Source: Botryllus schlosseri
Lineage: Eukaryota
Length of the DNA stretch: 60,000 bases
Direction of reading: 5' to 3'
Assembly: GCA_051294905.1 (NCBI GenBank)
Contig: CM119372.1
Coordinates: forward strand, 36,458,001 to 36,518,000
Shown here: in pieces, positions 11,745 to 29,165 of the stretch
Numbering within the stretch: the stretch's first letter is position 1
How the letters are laid out: each line of letters starts with the position of its first letter
Position numbers and translations under genes: made by a program
The notes under the pieces: generated by a model
The model's input: the letters and a program-made list of their open reading frames with translations, nothing else
Database searches by the model: none
Told to the model about the DNA's origin: nothing

Positions 11745-12074
11745 AGTAGTATGAGAGAGGTCAATTTGATCCCCTCCAATCAGCGTCGAGTATTTGATCA
11801 CGTGACATCTGTTAGCCAATCAGAATGCAGAACGATGTGGGTGTGGTTCCAATACGAGAGAGGTGTGGGTTGTGTGAGAGATAGCATAGTTCCAGTTCAG
11901 TAACGCTGAGATATTTATTACGTCATTGCGTAAGTTGATTACCTATGATTGCGTATTGCATCATGATTACGTCACATGCGTAGTTGATTACTTTAGTTAT
12001 TTCGAGAGTGGCTTTGCTTAGTTCCAATAATGCTTAGATATGATTACGTCTAGTTCCAGTTTATTACGTCATTG
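11745..12074 (+). repeat. Polinton left TIR
   Basis: Reverse complement of 28836-29165 with a single mismatch (GATGTGG vs GATATGG). Confidence 0.97.
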
Positions 12075-12075
12075 A

Positions 12076-12300
12076 CCCCCTCCAATCAGCGTCGAGTATT
12101 TGATCACGTGACATCTGTTAGCCAATCAGAATGCAGAACAATGTGGGTGTGGTTCCAATACGAGAGAGGTTTTGGTTGTGCGAGAGATGGCATAGTTCCA
12201 GTCCAGTAACGCTGAGATATTTATTACGTCATTGCGTAAGTTGATTACCTATGATTGCGTATTGCACCATATTCATGATTACGTCACAAGCGTAGTTGAT
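12076..12300 (+). repeat. Internal tandem copy of TIR sequence immediately upstream of the Bcl-2 gene
   Basis: Repeats ~11771-11988 including the CCAAT boxes, TCACGTGA and TTACGTCA motifs. Confidence 0.9.
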
Positions 12301-12322
12301 GCTCACTGTTATCTTCAAAACC

Positions 12323-12817
12323 ATGAAATTATTGCGAGTATCACCTGCGCTCACTGAAGAAAAGGATGAAATTATATCCACGGCATATTCCTTAGCTAGA
12401 AATTTTATCATGTATGAAATCGATGGCTCAAGCGTTAAAGCAAATACGCAGGTGGAGAAAACCTTACGACGAGTTGTTACTGAAATATTTGAGCGATATC
12501 GAACTATCCTAAACGCAGTCTCCAAGCGCCTTCGTTATAGTGAAGTCAATGAGAAATATAAAGAACATTCACCCATTGAGCGAATGTTCCTGATGATAGC
12601 CGATGAAATATTCAGAGATAGTCAAGAAAATTGGGGTCAGATTGTGTCTCTTTATGTGCTTGGCGGCATTCTTGCTCGCAATAACGAGGCTGCGCATAAC
12701 GGCAGGGATATAGATGCTATCATACAGACACTCGGGAATTACATTGCTACTAAAAAACGAAAGTGGATAGAACAAAATGGCGGATGGAGGCATTTTGTCA
12801 TGTGGTATCACTTATAA
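12323..12817 (+). CDS. Bcl-2 family protein (virus-carried)
   Basis: BH1-like EIFRDSQENWGQIVSLYVLGG, BH2 WIEQNGGWRHF and BH3-like TLRRVVTEI; start in ACCATG context. Confidence 0.9.
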   Translation: MKLLRVSPALTEEKDEIISTAYSLARNFIMYEIDGSSVKANTQVEKTLRRVVTEIFERYRTILNAVSKRLRYSEVNEKYKEHSPIERMFLMIADEIFRDSQENWGQIVSLYVLGGILARNNEAAHNGRDIDAIIQTLGNYIATKKRKWIEQNGGWRHFVMWYHL

Positions 12818-12854
12818 AAGCTCGATCGCAGTTACTATTTGTTATATTTACATC

Positions 12855-13154
12855 ATGGGCTCCGTGCGAATAAATGCTTGTAAGTTTATTGGATCCAAGG
12901 CCGTATCATGGATAGTATATTCGAAATGTATGAAGATGGTTGGTGTGGATGTAATGGAAATATCGTATCCTTTCACTATACTAGAATGTGAAGGATGTAA
13001 TTATACAGAGCTGCTAGCATGTGATCAAGACGAAAGAAAAACAATGAAGATATACGATACTGAAGTAACGAAAGAAGAACATCGAGTTGTTTTTAAGTCA
13101 ACAGCAACAGTAGAACTATCTCATAAATTTGCTAATGCTACTGCTCAAAACTAA
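12855..13154 (+). CDS. Hypothetical protein (~99 aa, CxxC motif)
   Basis: ORF fills the gap between Bcl-2 and tRNA-Ala; no recognised family. Confidence 0.5.
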   Translation: MGSVRINACKFIGSKAVSWIVYSKCMKMVGVDVMEISYPFTILECEGCNYTELLACDQDERKTMKIYDTEVTKEEHRVVFKSTATVELSHKFANATAQN

Positions 13155-13177
13155 CATTTAAGCCGTCGCAATCGCTT

Positions 13178-13249
13178 GGGGATTTAGCTCAGCGGTAGAG
13201 CAGCTGTCTTGCAAGCAGAAGGTCACGGGTTCAATTCCCGTACTCTCCA
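13178..13249 (+). tRNA. tRNA-Ala (anticodon TGC) inside the Polinton
   Basis: Cloverleaf with G3:U70 Ala identity pair, D stem GCTC/GAGC, loop CTTGCAA, T stem ACGGG/CCCGT, discriminator A and downstream T6 terminator. Confidence 0.88.
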
Positions 13250-13318
13250 CTCTTTTTTCCGTTGAAGTGCTAATGACGCAAAGGTGGCGCAATCATTTCA
13301 ATTTGATTATCACTCAGA

Positions 13319-26755: not shown

Positions 26756-26787
26756 TGCGATCACAATAACACGCATGCACCTATCAA

Positions 26788-27030
26788 ACTAGCTGCGGCT
26801 ATGAATTTGAAACTGTGCCAGTGATAGTTGCGCAACGTCCGAGATATATTAAATTTAAAAAACAACAGCTGCGGCGTTGAATTTGAATCTGCGGCAGTTG
26901 CGAAACAGTTGCGCAACGTTCGAGATAATCATTTTAAATTTGAAAAATAACAGCTGCTGCGTTGAATTTGAATCTGTGACAGTTGCAAAACAGCGGCGCA
27001 ACGTGTGAGATATTCAATCATTTTAAATTT
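26788..27030 (+). repeat. Three ~80-bp imperfect tandem repeats upstream of a TATA box
   Basis: Unit AGCTGCGGC..TGAATTTGAA..GTTGCGCAACGT..GAGATA; TATAAAA at ~27070. Confidence 0.8.
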
Positions 27031-27135
27031 AAGTTTTAAAAAAATCAGAGAAAAGAACACGCCGAGGTCTATAAAAACCACAGTAGCTACTCCATAATTT
27101 CAGTTCTATTCAAGAGACATTGTTTAGATCGAATC

Positions 27136-27681
27136 ATGTCTATAGCAATTAGAGCCGAGTCGCAACTCCCAGAAGGAGCTCTTCGGAAGGACATTTACAT
27201 TTTCAATAACATATCGAAGCTTCGAATCGAAACTGCAGACGATCAGCTGATCGATGCTCGACAAGTACGTGTGTTTCCAACGAATGGTGCAATACAAAGA
27301 TTCAAAGCAAGTTTAACTCATGATGGGAAGCTCGTTGCGTGTTACACTCGAGAAGGTATCGAATACTTTCAGCAAATCAATCTCGCTGATGAATATATAT
27401 TATATTCTCCGTCGAACGTCGTTGATGACGTAGAAAATTCACCGCTGGGGTGGATTTTACAAGAAACATCGCGTTACATTGCGCCGAATGGTCAAATACA
27501 ACCTATGGATCGCGCTAAAGCGGGATTTCCAAATGGTTATGGCAACTTTGCTGGGAATGGTGGCATGTCGAATACCAATGCAAGATTCCGGAATGCTGGC
27601 AATGCTAATGGAACCTTTCCAAATAGCAATACGCAATACGGCAATCAAAAATGGATGCCAAACAATTCTCAGCAATTTTGA
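27136..27681 (+). CDS. Hypothetical protein with N/G/Q-rich low-complexity tail
   Basis: 181-aa ORF with its own TATA box (~27070) and AATAAA (~27739). Confidence 0.8.
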   Translation: MSIAIRAESQLPEGALRKDIYIFNNISKLRIETADDQLIDARQVRVFPTNGAIQRFKASLTHDGKLVACYTREGIEYFQQINLADEYILYSPSNVVDDVENSPLGWILQETSRYIAPNGQIQPMDRAKAGFPNGYGNFAGNGGMSNTNARFRNAGNANGTFPNSNTQYGNQKWMPNNSQQF

Positions 27682-28026
27682 ATTGTCTCGGAAGCGCGCT
27701 CAATGCGATATCAATTGTTTTATTGCTATGTGCGTGGAAATAAAAGCTTTCTGTGATTATGATTGTTGTGTTCAATGATTTTCAGTGCTGATAGACTTAC
27801 ATAGCATATGACGTAATTTAATTACTCAGCCCTGTAGAGCTGCTTTGTGTTTATAAGCAGGTCACTCAAGTTTAGTACTCTCCCTAGAGGTTATTGCACA
27901 ATCTATCTCTAATATGCTGCAATATAGACAGGTTCAGACTTGTCTATTCACTTCCGTTGAGTGACTTTTATAACACATTTTACACAATCAAATGTGTAGT
28001 TTATTATTAACGATCAAGCACATTTA

Positions 28027-28191
28027 CTAATCGTTCAGAACAAGGCGTAGAGCTTCTTTGAGATCTTGGCACACTTTCTTGATATCAGAATCCCTTTTTT
28101 GATTTGCGATGTAAAAGCAATAACAGTTTCGCATACATGAGCATATGATTACGAATAAACCGATATTGAAGTCTTCTGAGAGCATCTTCAT
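28027..28191 (-). CDS. 54-aa micro-ORF with hydrophobic, Cys-rich N-terminal half
   Basis: MKMLSEDFNIGLFVIICSCMRNCYCFYIANQKRDSDIKKVCQDLKEALRLVLND, followed by AATAAA (~28000). Confidence 0.45.
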   Translation of the reverse strand: MKMLSEDFNIGLFVIICSCMRNCYCFYIANQKRDSDIKKVCQDLKEALRLVLND

Positions 28192-28218
28192 TATTCACTA
28201 GTCCGCGCAATTCTCCTC

Positions 28219-28506
28219 TTAGTACGATATGTCTTTCAACAAAGCATTTGAATTGCTATTCGAAGGTATCTGACAGCTGTGAACTAATTCTTCAAGTTTG
28301 TTCATTGTAGCGTAACGACCATTTTTACGAATCCATAACTGTATCATTTGATATCGTTGCTCAGTCAAGTTATAGCAATCCATGTATTGACATTCGGCAA
28401 TTTCATTGTCAGATAGCTCAAGTTTTTCACGTGCAAACCTATACCAGTTCATTAGGTCAATTCGATCCATTATGACGTATATATCATTAGCAGTAATCTT
28501 TGACAT
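28219..28506 (-). CDS. Stand-alone Death-domain protein
   Basis: WYRFAREKLELSDNEI...LTEQRYQMIQLW..KNG..ATMNKL fits the Death-domain pattern. Confidence 0.88.
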   Translation of the reverse strand: MSKITANDIYVIMDRIDLMNWYRFAREKLELSDNEIAECQYMDCYNLTEQRYQMIQLWIRKNGRYATMNKLEELVHSCQIPSNSNSNALLKDISY

Positions 28507-28835
28507 ATTCAATCTACAGCGAATAATCATGTAATAAATATTACACGTTATATATTGCTTGCACTTGCTTCAACTGCAAAGGCAATCAACGCAATATTGA
28601 CTTAATCATATCTCGGCGTTACTAAAGTAATCAACTACGCATATGACGTAATCATGAACATGCTTCAACTACTCAATCATAATGACGTATTTCTCAGTGT
28701 TATTGGACTGAAACTAGACGCATGACGTAATATCTCAGCATTACTGGAACTAAGCAAAGCCACTCTCGAAATAACTAAAGTAATCAACTACGCATGTGAC
28801 GTAATCATGGTGCTATCATAGGTAATCAACTTACG

Positions 28836-29165
28836 CAATGACGTAATAAACTGGAACTAGACGTAATCATATCTAAGCATTATTGGAACTAAGCAAAGCC
28901 ACTCTCGAAATAACTAAAGTAATCAACTACGCATGTGACGTAATCATGATGCAATACGCAATCATAGGTAATCAACTTACGCAATGACGTAATAAATATC
29001 TCAGCGTTACTGAACTGGAACTATGCTATCTCTCACACAACCCACACCTCTCTCGTATTGGAACCACACCCATATCGTTCTGCATTCTGATTGGCTAACA
29101 GATGTCACGTGATCAAATACTCGACGCTGATTGGAGGGGATCAAATTGACCTCTCTCATACTACT
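28836..29165 (-). repeat. Polinton right TIR
   Basis: Reverse complement of 11745-12074. Confidence 0.97.

Follow-up and report, generated by a model that had tools for sequence, protein, structure and literature searches.

The region from 11745 to 29165 of the window, by which we mean the whole stretch of 60,000 nucleotides analysed, holds a Polinton/Maverick element of 17,421 bp. This is likely a single integrated genome, that of a Polinton/Maverick of the animal (adintovirus-like) kind which has been active recently and whose terminal gene blocks would keep the infected cell alive. Judged from their sequences, the conserved genes at both ends look built to stop self-killing of the host cell. 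The element is structurally complete, as the earlier note proposed, with terminal inverted repeats (TIRs), a target site duplication (TSD) and a full, open set of core genes, and the accessory gene blocks which that note placed at both termini are borne out by Pfam and tRNA matches. In the family the accessory set is composed on the left of Bcl-2, a 99-aa ORF, tRNA-Ala, a UBE2D-like E2 and tRNA-Pro, and on the right of a BIR-only IAP (lost in the window copy), o181 and a Death-only protein.

Ends and repeat blocks

The TSD is a perfect 6 bp repeat, GGGCTC at 11739-11744 and the identical 6-mer, read from the sequence, at 29166-29171. The TIRs (11745-12074, beginning AGTAGTATGAG, and 28836-29165) are 330 nt each and 99% complementary; both come from an inverted-repeat search and from the sequence, and the search gives 340 nt instead of 330 because the repeat continues through the TSD. 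The element ends in AG...CT and its termini read AGTAGTA.... The left TIR contains a motif that we take to be CCAAT-box-like, together with CACGTGAC, presumably E-box-like, and ATTACGTCA and ATTGCGTAA, presumably bZIP-site-like.

A terminal unit of about 306 nt is duplicated (11766-11964 and 12072-12270, 96%, repeat search), and its second tandem copy (12072-12298, plus strand) reaches the ATG of Bcl-2. Repeat search and sequence show that the right TIR is separated from the ATG of the Death ORF by a repeat block (28528-28835, minus strand), and an internal copy of this TIR-proximal block, with a TATATAA-like core, is found at 25924-26195 (minus strand; match to 28528-28816 by repeat search). 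One repeat block in this way lies upstream of three units whose reading direction is inward or toward the genes for replication: the left-end Bcl-2, the right-end Death ORF and, internally, o219/PolB. By position only, 12072-12298, 28528-28835 and 25924-26195 are putative promoters of Bcl-2, the Death ORF and o219/PolB, respectively.

Core genes

The genes for replication, integration and morphogenesis form a complete set on the minus strand and are all open in the window copy. The protein-primed family B DNA polymerase (pPolB, 1309 aa, 21214-25143) is recognised by motifs in its translation (Exo I YDFESL, Exo II NSARYD, A DANSLY, B KLCGNSAFG and C GDTDS); it gave no polymerase match by sequence in Pfam or PDB, and homologues are present in all tiers of relatives. 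A 133-nt tandem duplication (25108-25373, 98%, repeat search) spans the beginning of PolB and the end of o219 and is single copy in one contig of run X1. Pfam identifies a retrovirus-type integrase with a C-terminal chromodomain (18691-19704; rve E=2e-13, Chromo E=6e-10) and an A32/FtsK-type genome-packaging ATPase (20589-21320; Pox_A32 E=8.5e-10).

The major capsid protein (MCP, 425 aa, 15293-16570), of the double jelly-roll type, was assigned through UniRef, where it is 29% identical to a Patella caerulea protein named 'Major capsid protein', and through the Atlas, where 15-24% of the members of its nearest clusters have PF21738 DJR-like_dom. The penton (minor capsid) protein o249 (249 aa, 16967-17716) has an AF2 model with a pLDDT of 82, whose best Foldseek matches are the mavirus penton (E=3e-8), the Sputnik penton and adenovirus penton bases; cross-matches between o249 and o273 (17713-18534), 22% identical in the alignment, make the latter a penton paralogue. 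For the adenain-like cysteine protease (150 aa, 14844-15296) there is a single weak PDB match, to the ASFV S273R protease (E=0.004), and the translation shows His (GSHW) and Cys (ACGAH) motifs; the protein is conserved in 4/4 tiers. The small protein o122 (16621-16989), with a very basic C-terminus in translation, reaches 90% conservation in the 86% tier, with a dN/dS of 0.04, and is a putative core or membrane-active virion protein. Conserved in the same tier are, all on the minus strand, o105a (14109-14426; 45-47%), o105b (14540-14857; 64%) and o70 (18531-18743; 89%). Three further genes, likewise on the minus strand, are known from ORF translation: the Pro/Ala/Lys-rich o153 (19695-20156), the basic o107 (20230-20553) and, upstream of PolB, o219 (25260-25919). 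The latter has no Pfam match and occupies the location of the 'Oncoid' genes of adintoviruses; in the 86% tier the homologous stretch is part of a 562-aa ORF.

Recent mobility and retention of the cargo

Out of 99 capsid matches scored in the genome, twelve have at least 97% MCP identity. Between the C14 copy and the window copy there is 1 base of difference in 4,275, eight further copies are 96.9-99.4% identical to the window copy, and TSDs are perfect and all different in the five copies with readable ends (5/5). The element is very recently mobile. The earlier note named absence or pseudogenisation of the cargo in sister copies as what would tell against its reading; among the twelve copies Bcl-2 and tRNA-Ala are kept in 12/12 and E2, tRNA-Pro and Death in 11/12, all open. 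The 86% tier retains E2, tRNA-Ala, BIR, o181 and Death; Bcl-2, BIR and o181 persist in the 70% tier. Stop-free are 147 of 150 Bcl-2 matches among the matches listed and 60 of 63 BIR matches. Bcl-2 and Death are also found in dozens of palindromic mini-elements. A search for relatives with genomic context outside the source genome found none.

The BIR/IAP gene, identified by Pfam in sister copies (128 aa), is present in 8/12 copies at this identity. Comparison with the sister locus L026 locates a deletion of about 405 bp at 27120 (junction 27119-27121) that removes it from the window copy: window 26247-27120 matches L026 16-892, and window 27120-28850 matches L026 1298-3052. Since the window copy has a near-identical twin at another locus, the IAP is unnecessary for germ-line spread.

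Accessory genes of the left end

The left-end Bcl-2 and E2 that had been read from the letters are supported by Pfam. The Bcl-2 homologue (172 aa, 12299-12817, plus strand; Pfam Bcl-2 E=9e-20) has BH1 (NWG) and BH2 (GGW), and its best PDB matches are BCL2L10, Mcl-1 and Bcl-2; as the ORF stops 9 residues past GGW, with no GT donor there, it has no C-terminal membrane anchor. The 99-aa ORF (12855-13154, plus strand), counted from Met27 of a 125-aa ORF at 12777-13154, has no Pfam family above cut-off; in the 86% tier a homologue with 30-31% identity occupies the corresponding place. The UBE2D/UbcH5-like E2 (158 aa, 13319-13795, plus strand; Pfam UQ_con E=2e-48) aligns with UBE2D1/2/3 in the PDB at E~1e-45 and retains the HPN motif and the catalytic Cys, with Lys in place of UBE2D Ser22.

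Both left-end tRNA genes were recovered by ARAGORN and Rfam, well over the Rfam cut-off: tRNA-Ala(UGC) at 13178-13250 (64.4 bits) and tRNA-Pro(UGG) at 13986-14057 (58.4 bits), both on the plus strand and followed by a T6 run and by TTTT, respectively. All 26 genomic DNA matches of tRNA-Ala (26/26) adjoin Polinton capsid genes. In the at least 97% tier tRNA-Ala is mismatched at U6.C67 or U6.U67, a pair that is C-G in other tiers, and also at G27.A43; one variant carries two compensatory T-stem swaps. Compared with the host arrays, tRNA-Pro shows two double-compensatory pair changes in the acceptor stem, and by sequence it is clearly derived from host tRNA-Pro. The decayed tRNA that the earlier note placed at the right end was not recovered: cmscan over 11000-30000 at E<=1 yields only the two left-end tRNAs, and ARAGORN shows none there.

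Accessory genes of the right end

The Death-domain-only protein (28219-28530, minus strand) was correctly recognised (Pfam Death E=3e-11); its start is probably Met9 (28506), matching sister copies, and every viral Death copy is an open frame, about 94-116 aa long. On C8, two host genes encode an N-terminal Death domain plus caspase, and one of them shares 60% identity with the viral ORF from Met1 onward (75 aa aligned to host residues 1-74, E=5e-30). A search of 1.84 billion representatives gave 21 matches, and the five scanned (5/5, 480-600 aa) are again N-terminal Death plus caspase. The domain is clearly host-derived, and from the identity to the host prodomain the ORF is therefore probably a prodomain-only decoy of the host DD-caspase, like vFLIP. 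Among solved structures the closest are the death domains of TNFR1, RIPK1 and FADD. The Toll signalling suggested as a target is not supported: the domain is nearest to DD-caspase prodomains and those of MyD88, Pelle and Tube are absent among the 32 structure matches.

The conserved accessory protein o181 (27136-27681, plus strand) is represented by homologues in three tiers, which share 45 invariant columns, and combines a beta-rich N-terminal domain (low-confidence model) with an N/G/Q-rich tail. The SIM-like micro-ORF of the earlier note (46 aa, 26243-26383, minus strand, acidic core VDVIDIT) exists, but its length is at chance level (one ORF of at least 46 aa in 25920-27135 against 1.3 expected from shuffles); one diverged sister copy conserves it at 91%, other tiers lack it, and as a gene it is doubtful.

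Selection and expression

Median dN/dS, for pairs with 0.05<dS<1 that are not independent of each other, is 0.33 for Bcl-2 (87/91 pairs), 0.30 for Death (53/66) and 0.27 for o181 (5/15). E2 gives 0.27 in comparison with a 95% copy and 0.14 when set beside the 86% tier (dS about 2). Constraint on the cargo, at about 0.3, is weaker than on core genes (0.04-0.22). Both among copies and among diverged lineages, the accessory genes are retained, open and subject to purifying selection. Lineages have also exchanged them: for Bcl-2, the window copy and a 70%-tier element show a dS of 0.42, in a pair whose core genes are saturated.

Three bulk RNA runs were searched, with 6-13% of each run read. Cargo expression is visible for E2 (depth about 36 in run X19, the reads carrying sister-copy alleles) and for o181 (reads in 3/3 runs), but Bcl-2 and Death have trace reads only, at most about 1.7x. 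Capsid, penton, protease, integrase and ATPase have essentially no reads in these runs, which lends no support to the infectious behaviour proposed in the earlier note.

Proposed function and alternatives

The terminal blocks may be the counterpart of DNA-virus early regions, keeping the infected cell alive. Bcl-2 would block the mitochondrial pathway, the BIR protein would restrain caspases, and the E2 would redirect ubiquitination by host RING ligases. The Death-only protein, a copy of the host DD-caspase prodomain without the protease, would compete for that caspase's activating platform; by sequence it is likened to the vFLIPs, which compete against caspase-8, and to the CARD-only proteins, which compete against caspase-1. 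In the available part of a Hydra preprint, FADD filaments recruit a DD-caspase. The missing membrane anchor of Bcl-2, the tRNA-Ala mismatches, the weaker constraint on the cargo, the spread of an IAP-less copy and the lack of reads on virion genes, with mere traces on Bcl-2 and Death, weigh against this reading. The claimed novelty of the combination stands in part: adintoviruses already have Bcl2 and IAP homologues on record, according to the accessible portion of PMC8502044, but our literature search turned up no animal Polinton described as carrying an E2, a DD decoy or tRNAs.

That the element is a passive self-synthesizing transposon, with Bcl-2, E2, Death and tRNA captured by chance, useless to it and persisting only through the youth of the copies, seems very improbable. 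The host origin of the Death domain and tRNA-Pro agrees with it, as do the nearest E2 outside elements, a tandem array in the same genome, the capsid genes without RNA reads and the spread of an IAP-less copy, and foldback derivatives would carry terminal genes without any selection. Against this, cargo stays open across synonymously saturated lineages (the E2 comparison at dS about 2; BIR in three tiers), the 87 Bcl-2 and 53 Death pairs are under constraint, the tRNA stems change in compensation, and five protein cargo types that would all act on one pathway are not predicted by chance capture. Somewhat less improbable, yet still unlikely, is that the cargo works chiefly for the host or for a resident (latent) state: integrated copies would express E2, o181 and perhaps Bcl-2, IAP and the DD decoy as extra cell-death regulators or a defence/addiction module, with virion genes silent. 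Reads on E2 and o181 and not on morphogenetic genes would suit this, and so would the genome-wide dispersal of Bcl-2 (more than 150 copies, mostly open) and Death (about 149 matches), many of them in the non-autonomous palindromic elements, incapable of making virions. Nematode Mavericks deliver cargo later used by hosts, as stated in the available part of a preprint (10.1101/2022.07.12.499685). However, near-identical autonomous copies with open virion genes indicate that the element itself is still selected, host benefit leaves the constant near-terminus place of the cargo under a shared repeat block unexplained, and Bcl-2 and Death RNA is trace only in the runs read.

Under the antideath reading preferred here, the two pol III genes would be functional tRNAs retained by the element, and may serve to supply translation, to evade host responses directed at tRNAs or to insulate chromatin. 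It is possible, though we regard it as doubtful, that they are instead kept as pol III units and not as translation adaptors, being chromatin barriers that shield neighbouring cargo or sources of small RNA, for which adenovirus VA RNAs and the tRNA-like genes of gammaherpesviruses are the comparison. The tRNAs flank on both sides E2, the best-expressed gene of the element, codon use of the element makes no strong demand on them (GCA accounts for 30% of the Ala codons, CCA for 28% of those for Pro), and a different tRNA, Leu-UAA, occupies the same place beside Bcl-2 in one mini-element. The acceptor and T stems, however, stay paired through compensatory changes, and G3:U70, the alanine identity pair, is preserved in 4/4 tRNA-Ala variants, both of which fit real tRNA use.

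Structure and copies of the element

The Polinton/Maverick element occupies positions 11745-29165 of the window (17,421 bp); reading of both ends and of the target site duplication (TSD) showed the limits proposed in the earlier note to be exact. Both ends, read inward, are AGTAGTATGAG..., with AGTAGTA termini and 5'-AG ends as expected of a Polinton/Maverick. The terminal inverted repeats (TIRs) are 330 nt long with 99% complementarity (340 nt when the computation is run through the duplicated target site), and the 6-bp TSD, GGGCTC, is identical at 11739-11744 and 29166-29171. 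A unit of about 306 nt is present twice in tandem at the left end. The G+C content of the element is not distinct from that of its flanks.

The window lies within a 495-Mb assembly, in which the major capsid protein (MCP) gave 99 scored matches among 273 candidates, 93 of the 99 being without a stop. According to identity with the window MCP these form four tiers: at least 97% (12 matches), 82-87% (the 86% tier; 15 matches, 12 full length), 65-76% (the 70% tier; 46 matches, 39 full length) and 33-34% (the 34% tier; 26 matches). The near-identical twin on contig C14 differs from the window copy at 1 base in 4,275, and eight other copies are 96.9-99.4% identical. Perfect 6-bp TSDs, all different, are present in five of five copies with readable ends (GGGCTC, TAAACA, TCGGTT, CCCAGG and GCCTTA), a count that leaves out C1:35.76M, C6, C2:2.21M, C1:20.44M and C2:14.48M, whose termini are outside the sequence read. 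The insertions are independent, recent and of the integrase type; within what is a large Polinton population, the element is complete and very young. A search for AGTAGTA with a TSD found no ends in copies of the 86% and 70% tiers or in two palindromic elements (0 of 4), whose termini either differ or lie outside the sequence read.

A rearranged sister copy of 17,987 bp is found on contig C15 (L022 and L023, G000:C15:11058001-11078000, positions 1686-19672). It carries Bcl-2 at both ends, an inverted internal segment containing the penton genes and the 181-aa ORF o181, and no Death gene, and still has the perfect TSD GCCTTA and termini matching at 25 of 25 positions.

Near-identical words of the element occur in sequencing runs X1-X12 under two organism labels, with a share of up to 0.77 for label A and of 0.85-0.90 for label B (4 studies); no RNA run is among the runs listed as carrying them. 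No relative was recovered from IMG/VR viral contigs when these were searched with the capsid protein. The word-indexed protein search gave seven matches for the capsid protein, one of them named, a single match for Death (95%, on a short contig) and none for Bcl-2. These searches supplied no element with genomic context outside this genome for comparison.

Core genes

The core genes are all on the minus strand and all open. The integrase has an rve domain (Pfam E=2e-13) and a Chromo domain (E=6e-10), and the packaging ATPase is of the A32/FtsK type (Pfam Pox_A32, E=8.5e-10). The 1309-aa protein-primed polymerase pPolB has homologues in all tiers; its Exo I and Exo II motifs and motifs A, B and C were read directly in the translation, by their consensus. 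It gave no match to Pfam PF03175 and no polymerase among PDB sequence matches, where there was just a weak zinc-finger match. Pfam detected no OTU domain in it, which does not decide the matter, since the OTU-like assignment in adintoviruses came, according to the published text, from structure prediction.

The MCP (425 aa) is 29% identical to a limpet protein named 'Major capsid protein' in UniRef, and its nearest Atlas clusters have a DJR-like domain on 15-24% of their members. The putative adenain-like protease (150 aa) has a single weak PDB match, the S273R cysteine protease of African swine fever virus (E=0.004). The penton is encoded by o249, whose AF2 model (pLDDT 82) has the mavirus penton as its best fold match (E=3e-8), followed by Sputnik and adenovirus penton bases, with TM-scores of just about 0.4; o273 is a penton paralogue. 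What is expected of a Polinton/Maverick is thus found: pPolB by its motifs, an rve integrase, TIRs with a 6-bp TSD, and capsid, penton, ATPase and protease, the last on a weak match. The replication, integration and morphogenesis modules are therefore complete.

Protein cargo of the two ends

The left end carries, on the plus strand, genes for a Bcl-2 homologue, a 99-aa ORF with no Pfam family above the cut-off, and an E2 ubiquitin-conjugating enzyme. Bcl-2 (Pfam E=9e-20 over the full 100-position profile) has BCL2L10, Mcl-1 and Bcl-2 as nearest solved relatives; BH1 and BH2 are present, and their NWG and GGW align to BCL2L10 and Mcl-1. The ORF ends 9 residues past the BH2 GGW and no GT donor follows the Trp codon, so that the protein has no C-terminal membrane anchor; a spliced form with the anchor on a downstream exon is ruled out by the same lack of a donor. 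Some members of the Bcl-2 family work without an anchor, and its lack lowers the likelihood of function and does not exclude it.

The E2 (Pfam UQ_con, E=2e-48) is closest to UBE2D1/2/3 (E about 1e-45). In the alignment to UBE2D1 it retains the HPN motif and the catalytic Cys, and has a Lys at the position of UBE2D Ser22, where a change weakens backside ubiquitin binding. A tandem array of UBE2D-like E2 genes with about 25-30 intronless matches is present at G000:C1:34121103-34492685 (L024) and on contigs C148, C152, C155 and C163. The array E2s are 49-69% identical to that of the element, and the one that was read has 201 aa and no Polinton gene beside it. The array on C1 could be the source of the viral E2, or could consist of domesticated copies of it.

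The right end carries the Death-domain-only ORF on the minus strand, discussed below, and on the plus strand o181 (27136-27681), a conserved ORF for which the Atlas search gave no usable match and whose AF2 model has a pLDDT of 45.7. The SIM-like micro-ORF described earlier at 26243-26383 exists, with a length at chance level (1 observed against 1.3 expected) and no Pfam family above the cut-off.

In sister copies, a 128-aa ORF consisting of a BIR (IAP domain) only is located directly upstream of o181 (Pfam BIR E=7e-11 and 1.6e-9). The window copy has a deletion of about 405 bp exactly at this site (27120), and the C14 twin also lacks the BIR. Of the 12 close copies, 8 have the BIR ORF; the 86% tier contributes 12 copies, and another 43 matches have 42-46% identity. 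All but three of these 63 matches (60) are without a stop. The kit of the family therefore includes an IAP which was lost from the window copy. A search within the window element detected no BIR remnant. The matches at 40-41 kb come from a separate BIR-domain gene outside the element and about 11 kb to its right (40045-41146, minus strand); positions 40691-41146 give Pfam BIR E=6.5e-11, and the stretch at 40045-40600 contains more BIR-like pieces.

Among the 12 copies of at least 97% MCP identity, Bcl-2 and tRNA-Ala are present in all, and E2, tRNA-Pro and Death in 11 each; the exceptions are the rearranged C15 copy, without Death, and the copy at C1:6.1 Mb, without E2 and tRNA-Pro. One representative was read for each of the other tiers. 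That of the 86% tier has E2, tRNA-Ala, BIR, o181 and Death, and no Bcl-2 match; that of the 70% tier has Bcl-2 at a different place, BIR and o181, with tRNA-Ala in another copy of the tier; in that of the 34% tier none of these cargo genes was found within the 20 kb read.

A block of about 270 nt at 28528-28816, adjoining the right TIR and directly upstream of the Death ATG, recurs at 25924-26195 directly upstream of o219, the ORF preceding PolB, and related sub-repeats abut the Bcl-2 ATG. Words within these repeats are CRE/ATF-like, C/EBP-like, CCAAT and E-box-like, with a TATATAA-like core. The duplication and position of the block suggest a single promoter type, from which Bcl-2, Death and the replication unit would be expressed jointly in an early programme. 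At the start of PolB and the end of o219, the window also has a 133-nt tandem duplication (98%; 25108-25373), of which one X1 contig has a single unit, so that its copy number varies between copies or strains.

The Death-only protein and host DD-caspases

The Death-domain-only ORF (Pfam E=3e-11) was used in a full HMMER scan of 1.84 billion representatives (E<=0.001), which gave 21 matches. In the best three beyond its own cluster, and in two matches of 552 and 600 aa, the Death domain starts at about residue 1. Eight of the 21 were domain-scanned: all five of 480-600 aa are DD-caspases, with Death followed by Peptidase_C14, and the other three are multi-Death or ZU5-type proteins. DD-caspases are described as an invertebrate caspase type in parts of the literature on Hydra and sea cucumber.

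In the host genome, a cluster on contig C8 (G000:C8:2351348-2402504; L063 and L064) contains five open frames, 521-569 aa long, in which a Death domain lies at the N-terminus, and the two that were fetched are intronless DD-caspases (Death and Peptidase_C14). Residues 1-74 of one of them are 60% identical to the viral ORF over 75 aa (E=5e-30). The alignment pairs Met9 of the viral ORF with Met1 of the caspase, sister viral ORFs start at the equivalent of Met9, and the viral Death frames are of 94-116 aa. Judged from this alignment to the caspase N-terminus and from the short frames, the viral gene is a prodomain-only copy of a host DD-caspase, and the C8 caspases are likely both its source and its target.

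Such a decoy would compete for the adaptor of the DD-caspase, with which TNFR1, RIPK1 and FADD as nearest solved death domains are in agreement; Toll signalling, which had been suggested as a target, is not indicated by these relatives. In the text seen of a Hydra preprint, HyDD-caspase is recruited to HyFADD filaments, and the reference list of a sea-cucumber review has an entry whose title links a DD-containing NLR to a DD-caspase.

tRNA genes

The tRNA-Ala(UGC) and tRNA-Pro(UGG) genes at the left end, both on the plus strand, score 64.4 and 58.4 bits against an Rfam cut-off of 29, and each is followed by a T-run. The decayed tRNA reported earlier for the right end was not recovered: at E<=1, the stretch 11000-30000 yields no tRNA beyond these two.

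The tRNA-Pro matches host tRNA-Pro arrays with 81-95% identity over positions 4-68. It differs from three host copies at 7 of 72 positions, and four of the seven changes constitute two double-compensatory acceptor pairs, 2-71 from G-C to A-U and 3-70 from C-G to U-A. For tRNA-Ala, each of the 26 genomic DNA matches has a capsid match no more than about 3.5 kb away, and no host tRNA-Ala was above threshold in a genome DNA search that skips very common words, which is not proof of absence. G3:U70 is kept in four of four tRNA-Ala variants, one of which has two compensatory T-stem swaps; a mismatch, U6.C67 or U6.U67, is found in the tier of at least 97%, the window copy having U6.C67 and G27.A43. 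This structure-preserving change argues for functional tRNAs in the element.

In L049 (G000:C9:5684415-5684525), from a copy of the 86% tier, an element-type tRNA-Pro, 97% identical and with the same altered acceptor stem, lies at the right end beside Death, and tRNA genes thus move between ends and between lineages. In a mini-element a tRNA-Leu(UAA) adjoins Bcl-2. By the element's own counts, with no host gene set as reference, GCA makes up 30% of Ala codons and CCA 28% of Pro codons.

Selection, exchange and expression

Synonymous sites have reached saturation between the window copy and the 86% tier (dS 0.65-2.8), and dN/dS is well below 1 in every gene, with 0.04-0.22 for core genes, 0.14 for E2, 0.37 for Death and 0.40 for the 99-aa ORF. 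Over usable pairs (0.05<dS<1), which share history and are not independent, so that the values are descriptive and carry no formal test, median dN/dS is 0.33 for Bcl-2 (87 of 91 pairs usable), 0.30 for Death (53 of 66) and 0.27 for o181 (5 of 15); E2 gives 0.27 in one comparison, with a 95% copy. The dS of Bcl-2 between the window copy and a 70%-tier element is just 0.42, whereas the core genes of both are saturated, and hence cargo has moved between lineages after the cores diverged.

RNA reads were taken from three bulk runs of poly(A)/cDNA type, in which tRNAs do not show, from two studies and mapped at at least 96% identity; 6-13% of each run was read, and reads may stem from any close copy. 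E2 has a depth of 18+18 in run X19 only, in reads that carry G>A at 13453 and lack 6 nt at 13768, a deletion matching the 6-nt-shorter E2 of sister copies. Depth over o181 is about 4.4 to 8.0 in all three runs; it reaches about 3.5 in the PolB region (X15), and is at most 0.65 for Bcl-2 and 1.7 for Death. In the bins from 14485 to 21051, containing capsid, penton, protease, integrase and ATPase, reads are essentially zero in the three runs. Contigs of run X1, whose run type is a guess, extend over 29 of 30 depth bins at flat depth.

The depth peak at 11500-12096 is due to a poly(A)-tailed repeat at about 11515-11575, to the left of and outside the element. Reads there run into poly(A), with a depth of 30-35 per direction in X15, and the repeat is probably SINE-like or part of a 3'-UTR.

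Palindromic mini-elements

Bcl-2 gave 150 listed matches out of 417 candidates, 147 of the 150 being without stops. Among those listed, 106 form 53 inward-facing pairs, 3.0-16.8 kb apart and in recurring size classes. In L021 (G000:C1:3647001-3657000, positions 1521-8888) the palindrome has arms of 3,216 nt with 100% complementarity, 72 nt apart, each carrying tRNA-Leu(UAA) and Bcl-2. In L019 and L020 (G000:C5:25438001-25453000, positions 2005-13157) a unit of 11,158 nt is self-complementary at 99.7%, and each arm carries Death, a 91-aa ORF and Bcl-2.

That the palindromes are assembly artefacts was considered and rejected, given 53 pairs in discrete recurring size classes at different loci, of which two were inspected in full. 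They may be foldback derivatives of the terminal modules, in which termini and TSDs were sought and not found.

Relationship to known systems

Adintoviridae is a proposed family of animal Polintons/Mavericks (Starrett et al. 2021, PMC8502044) and, as far as its published text goes, shares with the element pPolB, an rve integrase, an adenain-like protease, an A32/FtsK ATPase, a DJR capsid with penton, TIRs, a 6-bp TSD and an ORF upstream of PolB. Bcl2 and IAP homologues are recorded there as accessory genes, so that the novelty claimed for this cargo combination holds only in part. In distinction to the adintoviruses of that text, the element adds a UBE2D-like E2, a Death-only caspase-prodomain homologue, o181 and two pol III tRNA genes. 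What was covered of its text and, for ubiquitin, of its supplement, with maps that are partly images, makes no mention of Death, UBC or ubiquitin, nor of tRNA for adintoviruses proper. Nematode Mavericks (Widen et al., 10.1101/2022.07.12.499685), in the text of the preprint, are alike in having modular cargo within a few kb of the TIR that is exchanged by recombination between elements, and unlike in the genes carried, namely WASP proteases and KRMA kinases with ubiquitin-like domains; that text names neither cell-death regulators nor tRNAs. Protist polinton-like viruses (PMC12220804) are also, by the text available, small PolB/DJR-type viral elements that encode tRNAs of their own, for which that paper considers codon compensation or a response to tRNA depletion as the role. 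They differ in being of protists, the present element being an animal pPolB/integrase Polinton with a tRNA-Pro traceable to the host and bearing compensatory acceptor changes.

The full-text literature outside Repbase and subscription papers gave no report of a polinton with a death domain. For polinton with ubiquitin-conjugating the sole co-mention, among the texts covered, is a mirusvirus paper, and for polinton with inhibitor of apoptosis or apoptosis none of the matches listed is on cargo by title or abstract. The kind of element is known; the E2, the DD-caspase decoy, the tRNAs and the palindromic amplification look new, and for the first three these searches gave no earlier report in animal Polintons.

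The layout invites comparison with adenovirus, which has a protein-primed linear genome with inverted terminal repeats, inward accessory or early genes at both ends driven from terminal-repeat-proximal sequence, an anti-apoptotic Bcl-2 homologue, pol III genes and a penton/hexon/adenain/packaging-ATPase module. The element is alike in these features, with the promoter role of its terminal repeats and the anti-apoptotic action of its Bcl-2 predicted, and differs in having an integrase, integration with TSDs, other accessory genes, and true tRNAs in place of VA RNAs. vFLIPs and the CARD-only proteins of cells are prodomain-only decoys, of caspase-8 and caspase-1 respectively. The Death-only ORF of about 95-103 aa resembles them in having a single death-fold domain, with homology to the prodomain of an initiator caspase, and in lacking the protease; it differs in its fold, a Death domain in place of a DED or CARD, and in its predicted target, a DD-caspase.

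The earlier note had the element behave like an infectious virus with terminal regions. Since the accessory genes are conserved, selected, exchanged between lineages and apparently aimed at cell death, the genomic data support a virus with terminal accessory regions over a passive transposon, and that part of the proposal is favoured. A fuller picture is offered tentatively, as one that is possible and still rather doubtful: a working animal-Polinton virus with adenovirus-like early regions at both ends and an anti-cell-death kit composed of Bcl-2, a BIR-only IAP, a UBE2D-type E2 and the first viral Death-domain-only DD-caspase decoy, a third death-fold counterpart to vFLIP and CARD-only proteins. 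Its tRNA genes would be kept functional by compensatory evolution, and its terminal modules would have been copied into palindromic foldbacks, seeding more than 150 open Bcl-2 genes and a similar number of decoy genes.

It is still debatable whether animal Polintons and adintoviruses are living viruses or fossils, and hardly any work exists on their accessory genes. In this family there are near-identical copies, fully open and independently inserted, together with cargo under measurable selection and, in the DD-caspase, a concrete and testable host target. Should the decoy prove functional, every death-fold class of initiator caspase would have had its prodomain copied by viruses, and the gene would be a tool to dissect the DD-caspase pathways of invertebrates. 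The putative palindromic derivatives illustrate a way for a virus to fill a genome with anti-apoptotic genes, and their spread bears on the reading of Bcl-2, IAP and Death-domain 'gene family expansions' in invertebrate genomes.

Other repeats in the window

About 1.3 kb to the left of the Polinton, positions 9870-10489 contain nested inverted repeats with perfect outer arms of 29 nt and inner arms of 175 nt and 132 nt at 80-85%, an arrangement resembling a foldback or MITE-type element. At 55380-60000 (plus strand) a Gypsy-type LTR retrotransposon carries a gag-like ORF with a zinc knuckle, followed by protease, RT, RNase H and integrase, and continues past the end of the window.
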